12,164 nucleotides of DNA from a virus (Duplodnaviria > Heunggongvirae > Uroviricota > Caudoviricetes), in IMG/VR virus record IMGVR_UViG_2698536471_000010. One strand, given 5' to 3'. The position numbers and the translations under genes were made by a program. Shown piece by piece: positions 1 to 12,164 of this stretch; the first letter of the stretch is position 1; every line of letters begins with the position of its first letter. The notes beneath the pieces were generated by a model. The model was not told where the DNA came from and made no database searches. It was given only the letters and a program-made list of their open reading frames with translations.

Positions 1-1
1 T

Positions 2-25
2 CTCCAGGAAACCCGGGGCGGTTCA
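2..25. repeat. Left copy of a perfect 24-bp terminal inverted repeat (CTCCAGGAAACCCGGGGCGGTTCA)
   Basis: Bases 2-25 are the exact reverse complement of bases 12141-12164; the match stops abruptly after 24 bp. Confidence 0.8.
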
Positions 26-229
26 GCGTGGGTTATTGAAGCCTGCAGAAGAAGGCTGTCAACAGAGAGTTCGGGTATGAATTACATAATTAAGTAACAT
101 GGTGTTCACAGAACACGCAGTTACCGGACACATCAGTTTTCCATTCGCTCCCCGGCAGTACAGGCTTCCCCTCTGACGGGATAGCCTGAAAAAATAACAC
201 AGAAAATTATTTGTTATAATTAATATAAC

Positions 230-370
230 TTACTCAAAAAAAAGCGACGAGAAAATCAGCATCAACGAACAATAAGCGCCAATACGTGATAACAAATGGC
301 AGCCATATTTGTCTGCAGTATAAGCAATGGACAGGATAACCACACCAGAAACCGTCAGCATAAAATCCAT
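230..370 (-). CDS. Hypothetical small hydrophobic protein (46 aa, MDFMLTVSGVVILSIAYTADKYGCHLLSRIGAYCSLMLIFSSLFFE)
   Basis: ATG start at 370..368 with GGGGAAG Shine-Dalgarno 5 nt upstream, TAA stop at 232..230. Below the ORF-track length cutoff; sits in an AT-rich stretch. Confidence 0.25.
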   Translation of the reverse strand: MDFMLTVSGVVILSIAYTADKYGCHLLSRIGAYCSLMLIFSSLFFE

Positions 371-726
371 TTGAACTTCCCCGGACAAAATCGACTCATC
401 TAAAGATTTACAGCTCTTTTTATTATCAATATGTTAAAAGTAAAATAAACAGATGTTCAATAACACGAATACAAAAACGTGCTGAAATTCAATGAATCCA
501 TTTCTGTGTCATCAATTAATAGTGATAAACATCCGGCTTCTTCCACCATCGCACCGGACAGGCGACTATGAGGGGACAACGCCGCGCTCCGTTAACGCGG
601 TAAACCCCGGTGTGTATCGTTTTTGATTATCCCCGCACACTCGCGCAGAGGACTCTCCCTGTCGGGCTGCGGTCTCTGTTAATGCAGGAATACGGCGACA
701 ATACCGCGCATGGATAATAAGGTCGC

Positions 727-951
727 TCAACACACTGGCTGTAATGCAGCGGATACCATGCGGCATTTAGCGGCATTCATCGTACACTCCACGGTTAGCT
801 CTTCATTCGTGGCATTCACCTGAAAGGTCCGGGAGTGTAATTGCGTACATTTACCACTGAACGAACCTTCAACAAGAACACGACCACGCTGCAAAATACG
901 GAACGGAATTGTTCCCTGAAAAGGTTCTACGGTTACCCGTAATTTCTTCAT
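727..951 (-). CDS. Hypothetical protein (74 aa), translationally coupled to Rz
   Basis: Its ATG overlaps the Rz TGA stop as ATGA (951..948), and a strong GGAGG Shine-Dalgarno lies inside the Rz 3' end. Several Cys residues; no recognised family. Confidence 0.5.
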
Positions 952-1442
952 GTATCCTCCGGATAATAAAAAGCCAGCTTAGTGCACTGAGTGCGGATAT
1001 ATTCCTGCGCCCCTTCCAGCTGCTTCTGCATTGTCATCAACCGTTCTCTGAGGATGAAATAATCCCGTTCAGCGGTGTCTGCCAGTCGGGGGCCGGTTGC
1101 ATTATCCACGCTGGAGGTGCCGGTGGCTTCACGCACGGTACCGGGGCAGGTGGCGTTGACCCGCAGGCGCTTACGACCAGCGGCAACATCAGCGCGCAGA
1201 GTTTCAATTTCAGCTCTCGCATCGGCTAATTCCTTCGTGTATCTGGCATCAAGCGCAGCGACATCTCGCTGGCGCTGCTGCATGTCAGTAATAGTGGCAT
1301 TCGCCAGTTTCAGCTCACTGACTTTTTTATCGCGCTGCGCTTTGTAGGTGATGGCGTTATCGCGGTAATGATTCAGCCCCAGACTAAGCACACCACAGGC
1401 TACCAGCAGGACAATAATCACCACACACAGAACACGGTTCAT
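948..1442 (-). CDS. Rz: Rz inner-membrane spanin (i-spanin)
   Basis: From the internal ATG (MNRVLCVV...) the protein has an N-terminal TM segment followed by [15 protein letters not shown]...[10 protein letters not shown], closely matching lambda Rz. The ORF-track start at 1526 is GTG and adds a non-homologous extension, so ATG 1442 is preferred. Confidence 0.85.
1037..1222 (-). CDS. Rz1: Rz1 outer-membrane lipoprotein spanin (o-spanin), embedded in Rz in another frame
   Basis: 61 aa with signal peptide plus lipobox (LVVSAC) and a proline-rich body ([32 protein letters not shown]) matching lambda Rz1; fully nested in Rz. Confidence 0.85.
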
Positions 1443-1541
1443 ATCACCACCAACGGATTGCCCAGACCAGAACAGCAATGGCCACAATACGAATGGCAAA
1501 TGCCATTGCCCGAATAAGTTCAGCACTCATCTTTTTAAAGT

Positions 1542-1890
1542 TCACGATTTCAGCGCAATGACCAGTTTTGCCAGCCCATACAGCATCGGAGACACAGCAA
1601 TACCAACAGCCACCCACTTAATAGCAAAAGCCAGCGCTCTGCTGATGTCATCAGTCACTGTCACCCCAGCAGCCCCGACGAAGACAACATCACCCAGGCG
1701 AGGGACAGAAAAAGAGCAACCAGCATTAGTGAAAATGAAATACCGACAATCACACACAGGACCTTTGCCGGCGTTATGAGTTTGTCTGACATAGCTACCC
1801 CTTAATTGCCACAATTAACTGGGATACTACCCATAAAAAAGGGATGCTCCAGACCAGCAAAAATTTCCAGTTTGGTAATTGACTAATCAT
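1542..1890 (-). pseudogene. Cluster of three short hydrophobic ORFs in three different frames between endolysin and Rz; possibly a disrupted membrane-protein gene or a set of small membrane peptides
   Basis: A 31-aa ORF (ATG 1890, GGGAG SD; MISQLPNWKFLLVWSIPFLWVVSQLIVAIKG), a 43-aa ORF (ATG 1792, AAGGGG SD; MSDKLITPAKVLCVIVGISFSLMLVALFLSLAW...) and the hydrophobic C-terminal part of ORF 1542..1814 (...DDISRALAFAIKWVAVGIAVSPMLYGLAKLVIALKS, TTG start only) lie head to tail. Confidence 0.25.
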
Positions 1891-1955
1891 GAGTCGCAAC
1901 TCCCTAATCAGTTTGCTAAAATCAATCAAGGCAGCCTCCCATAGCTTACTGCCAT

Positions 1956-2000
1956 AAAAACAAAACCCCGCTTGCTGCCAACAAACGGGGTTTTTACTTT
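1956..2000. terminator. Bidirectional intrinsic terminator downstream of the endolysin gene
   Basis: AAAACCCCG...CGGGGTTTT stem flanked by an A-run on one side and a T-run on the other, about 90 bp after the R stop. Confidence 0.5.
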
Positions 2001-2084
2001 TATTCACTTACGTTTCGCCAGTTCGCAGGATTTCATGTTATCCGCCCGCGTGGCCATGCCTTATTTTTCAGCAAAATATTCTGC

Positions 2085-10930: not shown

Positions 10931-10931
10931 G

Positions 10932-11210
10932 TTACCTCCAGATGCGTTGCTGGAATGTGCGAGACGGACGCGGTGGGCGTTCAGAGTAAGGAAGCCTGAC
11001 GGAGATTATCCAGTGACGGTAGTCGAGACTAAGGGCTTTCTTAACCTCGTATCCGCGCCTGCGGTAACACTGAATTATCCATTCAGCCTGCTCTTCAGTA
11101 CATGGAGGGTGTTGGAACCATTCAGACTTGAATGCGTGAGAATACCGCTCGTGCGTGCAGGCAAGAACGGGCGAATTATCAGAATTGTAATATTTTACGT
11201 TGCGTGCCAT
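10932..11210 (-). CDS. Hypothetical phage protein (92 aa), translationally coupled to the YdfU-like gene
   Basis: ATG start with GGAGAA SD; the stop abuts the downstream start; contains Cys/His residues. Confidence 0.55.
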   Translation of the reverse strand: MARNVKYYNSDNSPVLACTHERYSHAFKSEWFQHPPCTEEQAEWIIQCYRRRGYEVKKALSLDYRHWIISVRLPYSERPPRPSRTFQQRIWR

Positions 11211-11276
11211 CGGTTTTCTCCGGTGGCACGGTGTTACTCAGCGGGAGTTCAGCCCCGCGCAAGATTGTAGATGAGT

Positions 11277-11528
11277 TTATTCTTCTGCAAAAGCTGAAAA
11301 GCCTGCTTTTATTCCGATCTCTTTCAGTGCCTGTAATGAAGTGACAAACTCACCTTCGCGCAAGATAAATCCGTCTGTCACTCGACCATCCACAAAATTA
11401 ATTAACGCAGCCCCATTCTTTCGCAAACACATAATGCGGTAATGACTAACAAGATTTCCATTTTCAACGCACACAGCATAGAGGCCATCTTCACAAAAAA
11501 TTTTACGCAGTTCTTCGATGTTCATCAT
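11277..11528 (-). CDS. Rem-like small protein (83 aa)
   Basis: ATG start with GGAAGG SD; size and position (between hok and the YdfU-like gene) match rem of the Qin prophage. Named on synteny and length only. Confidence 0.55.
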   Translation of the reverse strand: MMNIEELRKIFCEDGLYAVCVENGNLVSHYRIMCLRKNGAALINFVDGRVTDGFILREGEFVTSLQALKEIGIKAGFSAFAEE

Positions 11529-11643
11529 CAGAATCCTTCCGGATAATTAGCTCTCCCCTTTAAGGGACCATCCCTCTTATCCCTGCGCGCTACTTAAGTA
11601 TTTTTGATTCTATTCCGGCGCCGTCCAGAACTTCAAACGCGTT

Positions 11644-11676
11644 GAAAATAAAAACAAAAACCCGCCGAAGCGGGTT
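11644..11676 (-). terminator. Intrinsic terminator of the hok mRNA
   Basis: On the minus strand AACCCGC-TTCG-GCGGGTT followed by TTTTGTTTTTATTTT, about 70 nt after the hok stop. Confidence 0.65.
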
Positions 11677-11744
11677 AAGTGCGGGTGCGTTGAGGATGCC
11701 TGCCACATCAGAGGTGGCGAGGGATTTCTCCCTCGCCGGGTCTC

Positions 11745-11900
11745 TTACTCCTCAGGTTCGTAAGCTGTGAAGACAGCGACCTCCGTCTGGCCGGTTCGGA
11801 TTCGTACCTCGCAGAGGTCTTTCCTCGTTACCAGTGCCGTCACTATGACGGTTAAACAGATGACGATCAGGGCGATTAACATCGCCTTTTGCTGCTTCAT
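11745..11900 (-). CDS. hok: Hok-family type I toxin (51 aa), HokD/Gef-like
   Basis: MKQQKAMLIALIVICLTVIVTALVTRKDLCEVRIRTGQTEVAVFTAYEPEE: the Hok TM segment plus conserved C-terminal region, with a GGAG SD. An in-frame upstream extension gives a 70-aa mok-like ORF. Confidence 0.9.
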   Translation of the reverse strand: MKQQKAMLIALIVICLTVIVTALVTRKDLCEVRIRTGQTEVAVFTAYEPEE

Positions 11901-11957
11901 AGCCTGCTTCTCCTTGCCTTTCGGCACGTAAGAGGCTAACCTACATGTGTCTAGCAT
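11745..11957 (-). CDS. mok: Mok-like in-frame upstream reading frame (70 aa) overlapping hok
   Basis: ATG at 11957 in frame with hok (MLDTCRLASYVPKGKEKQA-MKQQ...), analogous to chromosomal mokC/hokC. Confidence 0.5.
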   Translation of the reverse strand: MLDTCRLASYVPKGKEKQAMKQQKAMLIALIVICLTVIVTALVTRKDLCEVRIRTGQTEVAVFTAYEPEE

Positions 11958-12000
11958 GAAATTGGCCTCAGATTAATGTTAAGCGTCTTGCAGGACGCGT
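11914..12000 (+). ncRNA. Candidate Sok-like antisense RNA and its promoter, opposite the mok start
   Basis: Plus-strand TTGCCT-N17-TAACCT would start transcription around 11950, antisense to the mok translation-initiation region. No clear terminator found; extent is a guess. Confidence 0.2.
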
Positions 12001-12140
12001 AATGTTAACTGGGGCTTTTCTCTATCTGCCTTTGGTGTTCATGCCTGAGACAGATAGCCTCAAGCACCCGCAGCCATTCTACTTAACTCCCGTTACCCCG
12101 CCAATATGAAATCAGTCAGAAAGGCGATCCATAAGAATAA

Positions 12141-12164
12141 TGAACCGCCCCGGGTTTCCTGGAG
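12141..12164. repeat. Right copy of the perfect 24-bp terminal inverted repeat
   Basis: Exact reverse complement of bases 2-25. Confidence 0.8.

Follow-up and report, generated by a model that had tools for sequence, protein, structure and literature searches.

IS629 is well known for inserting into prophages of pathogenic E. coli, and the insertion sequence (IS) bordering the locus described here closely resembles the IS629/IS1203 elements of E. coli and Shigella. Like these, it is 1,310 bp long, contains orfA (HTH_Tnp_1) and orfB (rve, DDE type) with an annotated programmed frameshift, has imperfect terminal repeats of the TG...CA type, leaves a 3-bp target duplication and is a multicopy element that is frequent in prophages. 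Its identity to copies in STEC/EPEC-type E. coli is 99.9–100%, and there is no functional difference from IS629/IS1203; the window, i.e., the whole analysed stretch of 12,164 nucleotides, holds just 24–25 nt of each copy. The outer 13 nt of the repeat, TGAACCGCCCCGG, also recur in both inverted repeats printed for IS6110 of Mycobacterium tuberculosis (PMC5896891), another member of the IS3 family; divergence sets in after position 13, and IS6110 is a distinct element from a distinct host.

Two further known systems are relevant for comparison. As in the composite transposons Tn10 and Tn5, passenger genes lie between two identical inverted IS copies; unlike in Tn10 and Tn5, each IS has its own duplication, none surrounds the unit, and the block is located at its native position in the prophage. 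The ends of the record also resemble the contig breaks induced by repeats in short-read assemblies, as at either end it stops a few tens of bases inside a multicopy IS, yet they differ from breaks at k-1 overlaps in having overhangs of unequal length.

Terminal Inverted Repeat and Features of the Window

A perfect 24-bp inverted repeat at the window termini had been claimed in the earlier note, and both direct reading and a repeat search of the window confirmed it, yielding two 24-nt arms with 100% complementarity. The 24-mer occurs twice in the window, both times terminally, even with up to three mismatches permitted. It is also beyond chance, as had been proposed, because no match arose in 200 dinucleotide-preserving shuffles, in line with a chance expectation of none. 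Base 1 (T) is the complement of position 25 (A) of the IS and so belongs to the repeated element too, which makes the IS-derived tail 25 nt long at the left edge and 24 nt at the right edge; the one-base offset arises solely because the window ends one base sooner on the right. Elements annotated as 'IS3 family transposase' in L001 carry the same end as the window tip. The coding remnant adjoining the left tail equals the C-terminus of an intact 61-aa protein of L001, and IS_B splits this gene after codon 38 (Table 1).

Table 1. Features of the window and positions of the full-length IS copies in two long contigs (window coordinates unless stated otherwise).
Feature	Position	Strand	Remarks
Outer 25 nt of IRR, IS_B (probable IS629/IS1203 group, IS3 family)	1..25	-	identical to IRR start of full IS in L004 and L003; IS body outside left edge
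Repeat 24-mer, outermost IRR tip	2-25 and 12141-12164		TGAACCGCCCCGGGTTTCCTGGAG
IS_B inner target duplication copy, 3 bp	26..28	.	GCG on +, CGC on -; CGC on both sides of IS_B in L003/L004
3' remnant of ylcI/ynfO-family (DUF3950) gene	26..97	+	last 23 codons + stop; translation AWVIEACRRRLSTESSGMNYIIK*
Lambdoid-prophage late region between IS_A and IS_B	26..12140	-	12,115 bp
Rz-type lysis protein	948-1442	-	
Lysozyme	2085-2618	-	
Holin	3216-3431	-	
NanS-p-type SASA/DUF6645 esterase	4138-6075	-	
iraM-like gene	6377-6703	+	
DNA methyltransferase	7298-8374	-	
Q-like DUF1133 gene	8946-9500	-	
rusA	9509-9868	-	
DUF968 gene	9881-10930	-	
rem	11277-11528	-	
hokD	11745-11900	-	RefSeq annotation of related prophages
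sok RNA match	11895-12069		Rfam, 118 bits
IS_A inner target duplication copy, 3 bp	12138..12140	.	TAA on +, TTA on -; TTA on both sides of IS_A in L003/L004
Outer 24 nt of IRR, IS_A (second identical copy, opposite orientation)	12141..12164	+	identical to IRR end in L004/L003; IS body outside right edge
Full IS_A, 1,310 bp	L004 2626-3935; L003 2627-3936		
Full IS_B, 1,310 bp	L004 16051-17360; L003 16051-17360		

The window lies in a defective lambdoid prophage of an E. coli/Shigella-type genome. Its genes were called from the RefSeq annotation of E. coli prophages with 98–99.4% identity and from Pfam matches on the identical genes of L004; for the esterase, a look-up with the annotated ATG start gave matches and the version with a TTG start gave none. 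The window covers only the portion of a prophage devoted to late regulation and lysis, and it contains neither transposase nor replication nor structural genes. No tRNA was found in the window either, and the Pfam matches on the genes of the segment included no recombinase or invertase domain.

Full-Length IS Copies and Empty Sites

The complete window recurs on the reverse strand at 3912-16075 of L004, a locus within a 4.64-Mb NCBI contig, with 12,164 of 12,164 positions identical, and L003, within a 4.41-Mb contig, differs from it by one mismatch and one gap. A full copy of the IS adjoins the segment on either side in both contigs; the two copies are inverted to each other without a single mismatch and have their IRR ends directed toward the segment. 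Each copy is enclosed by its own direct 3-bp duplication, TTA/TTA around IS_A and CGC/CGC around IS_B. At both sites, L001 shows an uninterrupted sequence with a single copy of the respective triplet, and in closed E. coli genomes whose prophage is the same (98–99.4% identity) both sites are likewise uninterrupted, each with one copy of the triplet. The draft genome represented by L005 contains the IS on the hokD side and an empty ylcI site, and the IS_A junction was seen in two additional draft contigs, L005 and L007. The gene order in L003 and L004 is that of the IS-free relatives (PtuA-PtuB, hokD ... lysis, terminase), with the terminase and portal genes located beyond IS_B.

When 5,426 closed genomes of E. 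coli were searched with junction probes consisting of 120 nt of flank and 150 nt of IS, no single-piece full-length match turned up. Apparent '100%' matches consisted of two pieces joined across 100–250 nt of extra DNA, which places an IS nearby at another site. Neither junction was found by exact matching in IMG/VR or among the GTDB species representatives, and the same kind of scan of JGI metagenomes did not find the right-hand (hokD-side) junction. Because the occupied sites are absent from these closed E. coli genomes, the two insertions are lineage-specific.

Identity of the Insertion Sequence

The element has the two reading frames of the IS3 family: in L003, orfA (108 aa) matches PF01527 and orfB (295 aa) matches PF13276/PF00665/PF13683, so that the Pfam domains comprise HTH_Tnp_1 and rve; in L004 the gene call for this element is a 404-aa fusion. 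OrfB scored 311.9 bits against the NCBIfam model NF033516 'IS3 family transposase' (cut-off, 160). RefSeq entries for copies with 99.9–100% identity bear the notes 'programmed frameshift' and 'AL1L pseudoknot'; a search of the IS for an A6G motif as slippery site found nothing. The termini are likewise of the IS3 type, with IRL TGAACCGCCCCGGAAATCCTGGAGAC and IRR TGAACCGCCCCGGGTTTCCTGGAGAG both starting with TG and agreeing at 22 of the first 25 positions, and the duplicated triplets TTA and CGC in L003/L004 conform to the short target duplications (3–4 bp) of this family.

The element probably belongs to the IS629/IS1203 group, a name based on its ends, which we take to be those of IS629, on its identity to the copies in O26:H11 and on a published description of subtypes. 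Its identity to the copies of O26:H11 str. 11368 is 99.9%, and related copies in O157 and O111 are labelled 'IS3-like element IS1203 family' by PGAP. Subtypes of IS629 diverge by 4–5%, with one subtype related to O26:H11, and 62% of the IS629 copies in O157 are located in prophages (PMC3271280). Two copies in L001 differ from the element at 54 and 73 of 1,310 positions. The IS is a multicopy element, with matches in 4,260 of 5,426 complete E. coli genomes (median of 4 and maximum of 52 places per genome), and L004 contains three copies within 22 kb. A third insertion in L001 probably has CTT on both sides, as read from its junctions.

Origin of the Arrangement

We consider the window to be a prophage stretch between two inverted IS629-type copies that was cut at the repeat, and assign a probability of about 0.93 to this reading. 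Each copy inserted independently by ordinary IS3-family transposition, in which the OrfAB DDE transposase recognises the terminal inverted repeats and the element is copied out into a circular form that is then inserted, leaving a 3-bp target duplication. IS_B interrupted a ylcI/ynfO-like gene situated between lysis cassette and terminase genes, and IS_A landed just past hokD/sok. The transposase-distal ends (IRR) of both copies face the segment, and because both IRRs point inward, the same IS tip is present in inverted form at both segment edges. The terminal 24-bp repeat would be the remainder of the IS left by the stop of the record on each side. The earlier note was therefore right in considering that the segment could be bounded by a real inverted repeat, although the 24 nt are the tips of two identical 1,310-bp elements outside the window rather than the termini of one inside it. 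Judged by the window's identity to L004, the genome from which it was derived probably also contains both full IS copies.

The truncation itself is probably due to a repeat-induced assembly break: 24–25 nt of each IS are contained in the window because the sequence ends where the multicopy repeat starts. Other draft contigs break at the same IS copies, at 131 nt and 219 nt within the element, at 3 nt past its boundary (with the adjoining copy of the target duplication missing) and at 2 nt short of the boundary, and the longest contig containing the esterase of the window measures 10–20 kb in 71 of 161 collection blocks. An assembly artefact, as suspected earlier, is thus involved in so far as the sequence stops 24–25 nt into a multicopy repeat in the manner of other drafts, but the repeat itself is real. 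It is extremely improbable that the whole arrangement is artificial, whether by a chimeric or hairpin join or by a k-mer overlap added at both ends. The length of the repeat remnant (24–25 nt) is typical of small-k de Bruijn overlaps, but the proposal of a k=25 unitig fits imperfectly: its k-1 overlap would give 24 nt on either side, and here 25 nt are present on the left and 24 nt on the right, so there is no uniform k-1. Moreover, in two independent contigs of several megabases both junctions are present base for base, followed by full IS copies with proper target duplications, and the IS_A junction recurs in the draft contigs L005 and L007. The position of the repeats exactly at the record termini and the phage-like content might also suggest terminal repeats of a 12-kb element inside the window, either a large transposon or the linear genome of a phage or plasmid bearing inverted terminal repeats (ITRs). 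The probability of this is negligible, since the IS homology extends outward from the window and not inward, and since prophage DNA begins at once inside the repeats and is continuous over both sites in IS-free genomes. In addition, transposase, replication and structural genes are missing from the window, with terminase and portal following past IS_B in L003/L004. We rejected phage or plasmid ITRs as well as a transposon contained in the window on the grounds of the outward IS homology and the empty sites.

It is also very unlikely that the 12-kb block moves as a composite transposon of the Tn10/Tn5 style, with outer IRL ends, or flips by homologous recombination between the copies. The architecture permits both, as the copies are identical and inverted, lie 12.1 kb apart and have intact ends, and in E. 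coli 2013C-4974 the same IS type is tied to a prophage rearrangement joining a 185-aa gene to a truncated gpJ. Against this, each IS has a separate matching 3-bp duplication and the outer triplets differ (TTA vs. CGC); therefore, the block did not arrive as a composite, and no duplication surrounds the whole unit, which is collinear in its native prophage. An inversion would exchange the duplications between the copies; in L003 and L004 the duplications are intact, so that no recombination between the copies has followed their insertion there, and the gene order and orientation are those of the IS-free relatives. The combination of the hokD-side IS with an empty ylcI site in L005 indicates separate insertion events. 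A site-specific invertible segment of the Hin/Gin/Cin or tyrosine recombinase type was rejected, as the repeats are IS ends and the Pfam matches on the genes of the segment included no recombinase. A search for the inverted arrangement via Rem and its flanks returned 30,059 blocks, the protein being far too widespread, and among the places listed none belonged to this lineage. The proposal of an invertible or mobilisable unit found no support in view of the individual duplications, the collinearity with IS-free relatives, the draft genome with one IS and the lack of a recombinase in the window.

Implications

There is only a slight chance that recombination makes the 12-kb block an invertible cassette, or that the block is a composite transposon able to move hok/sok, the DNA methyltransferase, iraM and the NanS-p esterase. 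In that case, a fraction of the cells or related strains would carry the block flipped, and the terminase and structural genes would lose their coupling to the Q-dependent late transcript. We regard the arrangement as ordinary. For quality control, the case illustrates that a terminal inverted repeat on a phage-like contig is mistakable for ITRs, a complete linear genome or a new mobile element. For the biology of the prophage, it means that two lineage-specific IS629-type insertions further fragment an already defective prophage.

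Identity of the terminal repeat

Read directly, the window starts with tctccaggaaacccggggcggttca followed by gcgtggg and stops with ataagaataa followed by tgaaccgccccgggtttcctggag. A repeat search yielded one inverted pair that was by far the best of the window, with arms of 24 nt and 100% complementarity. None of 200 shuffles of the window gave any match, and no further copy of the 24-mer was found within it when up to three mismatches were allowed. This bears out the perfect 24-bp terminal inverted repeat of the earlier note. Base 1 is part of the repeated element too, which therefore extends over 25 nt at the left end and 24 nt at the right end.

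The window matches lambdoid prophages of E. coli, with strain OkiPb01713 (L001) as the closest closed genome (99.4% over 22-12144). There, the 24-mer recurs with 0–3 mismatches at all termini of two elements of 1,310 bp each that are annotated as "IS3 family transposase". The version in the window, TGAACCGCCCCGGGTTTCCTGGAG(A), corresponds to the IRR, which lies downstream of orfB, and the transposase-proximal end (IRL) reads TGAACCGCCCCGG[A/G]AATCCTGGAGAC. Pfam matches were HTH_Tnp_1 for orfA and rve for orfB, and OrfB scored 311.9 bits against NCBIfam NF033516 "IS3 family transposase" (cut-off 160). Copies 99.9–100% identical to the element occur in many STEC/EPEC-type E. coli, including O26:H11 str. 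11368, and matches were present in 4,260 of 5,426 complete genomes (median of 4 places per genome, maximum 52). The repeat ends are presumably those of IS629/IS1203. The feature is of a known kind, namely an IS629-type insertion sequence (IS) and a contig ending at it.

IS629 subtypes diverge by 4–5%, one of them being related to the O26:H11 copies, and 62% of the IS629 copies in O157 sit in prophages (PMC3271280). The outer 13 nt of the IS6110 repeats are the same as those of the repeat in the window (PMC5896891). The OrfAB transposase of IS3-family elements, a product of programmed frameshifting, acts on the terminal repeats; the element is copied to form a circle, which is then inserted into the target with a short duplication (bioRxiv 10.1101/2023.06.07.543989).

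Flanks and history of the two insertions

Using the exact sequence of the 645-aa NanS-p-type esterase of the window, we located two multi-megabase NCBI contigs, L003 (GCA_003015285.1, 4.41 Mb) and L004 (GCA_026134195.1, 4.64 Mb). The reverse complement of L004 3912-16075 is identical to the window in 12,164 of 12,164 bases, and a single mismatch and a single gap separate the window from L003. Complete 1,310-bp IS copies follow directly on both ends of the window sequence in each contig, IS_B on the left (ylcI side) and IS_A on the right (hokD side), and we infer that the source genome of the window carries the same two. The copies are inverted, show no mismatches to each other and face the segment with their IRR ends. 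Outside of them lie ptuA-ptuB on one side and the genes for the small and large terminase subunits and the portal on the other, in the same order as in L001 and L002, two prophages that are IS-free at both sites.

A 3-bp target-site duplication surrounds each IS separately (TTA for IS_A, CGC for IS_B), and both sites are unbroken with a single copy of the triplet in L001 and L002. Because of these separate duplications, the empty sites and the matching outer gene order, IS_A and IS_B represent two independent simple insertions. That they were separate events also follows from draft contig L005 of another genome, which contains the IS on the hokD side and an intact ylcI site. The exact junctions of either side were found in 0 of 5,426 closed RefSeq E. 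coli genomes, so the insertions are lineage-specific.

At both sites, the native target carries TGAA adjoining the triplet on the IRL side of the IS (ccaCGCtgaaaag, gaaTAAtgaattc). The IS tip has the same tetranucleotide, so that BLAST alignments to IS-free genomes reach 4 nt into the repeat (22..12144). This could reflect a preference for targets resembling the inverted repeat, or chance.

Invertible unit or assembly break

The earlier note had proposed either a real boundary of an invertible or mobilisable unit or an artefact of a k=25 de Bruijn assembly, and each proposal holds in part. The inverted repeat bounding the segment is real, as the full IS copies in L003 and L004 contradict a purely artefactual origin. 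However, inspection of these two contigs revealed no evidence for flipping or mobilisation of the block. The triplets are not swapped, indicating that the segment was not inverted by recombination between the copies, and no single duplication surrounds the whole unit, which argues against its arrival as a composite transposon. The lack of any recombinase contradicts a site-specific invertible switch, and a transposon or linear replicon within the window is contradicted by the outward-running IS homology and the continuity of IS-free genomes at both sites. Identical inverted IS copies could still occasionally recombine and flip, or mobilise, the block.

The assembly-related part of the proposal applies to the contig end, since the window stops just within a multicopy repeat. 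Breaks of this kind also occur, at different offsets, in further draft contigs of the locus: L005 begins 131 nt within the IS, L007 (12,356 bp) begins 219 nt within one IS and stops 2 nt before the other, and L006 begins 3 nt past the IS boundary and therefore misses the adjoining duplication copy. Among esterase-carrying collection blocks, the longest contig with the esterase measured 10–20 kb in 71 of 161. Such a pattern is usual for repeat-induced breaks, and the truncation of the window most probably represents one of them. A k=25 unitig should show 24 nt at both ends, so the extra left base makes it an inexact fit.

Gene content and other IS events

The segment 26-12140 corresponds to the part of a lambdoid prophage that serves late regulation and lysis. 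No tRNA was found in it, and the interval from the Q-like gene to the holin gene is free of both stx genes and tRNAs. The type I toxin-antitoxin locus hokD/sok is complete and seems unaffected by the insertion of IS_A. The esterase gene, intact in the window, carries a frameshift annotation in both of the closest closed genomes, L001 and E. coli 2013C-4974 (L018).

Features of the window and its surroundings
Feature	Position	Strand	Remarks
Inverted arms	2-25 / 12141-12164
TGAA-adjoining sites	22-28, 12138-12144		empty sites: L001 6001-6010, 19425-19440
ylcI/ynfO-family remnant	26-97		last 23 codons; split by IS_B after codon 38
Rz-type lysis protein	948-1442	-
Lysozyme	2085-2618	-
Holin	3216-3431	-
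NanS-p-type esterase	4138-6075	-	645 aa; DUF1737, SASA, DUF6645
iraM-like gene	6377-6703	+
N6/N4 DNA methyltransferase	7298-8374	-
Q-like DUF1133 protein	8946-9500	-
rusA	9509-9868	-
DUF968	9881-10930	-
rem	11277-11528	-
hokD	11745-11900	-
sok RNA match	11895-12069	-	118 bits, full-length Rfam model
hokD/sok locus	11745-12069	-	70 nt from IS_A junction
IS_A	L004 2626-3935	plus	complete, 1,310 bp
IS_B	L004 16051-17360	minus	complete, 1,310 bp
Third IS copy, IRL end	L004 126-145	minus

Past the right end of the window, a Septu-type defence pair adjoins the segment (L004 126-3935; PADLOC, PtuA 550 bits, PtuB 278 bits), with IS_A on one side and a further copy of the IS on the other. This brings the number of copies within 22 kb of L004 to three. 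In the closed genome of E. coli 2013C-4974, which has at least 40 places matching the IS, the same prophage lies integrated beside tRNA-Ser/mtfA. There, an IS3-family copy (L018 5733-7205) links the gpJ tail gene to the 185-aa gene (about window position 3008), both of them truncated, which represents an IS-associated deletion from the lysis to the tail region.

At the end of hokD, L001 carries an inserted IS of a different subtype (17725-19034, ~window 11746), which differs from the IS of the window at 73 of 1,310 positions and has a CTT duplication (junctions read by eye). Several other genomes carry an IS3-family copy within about 100–250 nt of the ylcI gene. Insertions into this region of the prophage have thus occurred repeatedly. 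The feature is otherwise of low interest, and it advises caution with terminal repeats on phage-like contigs.
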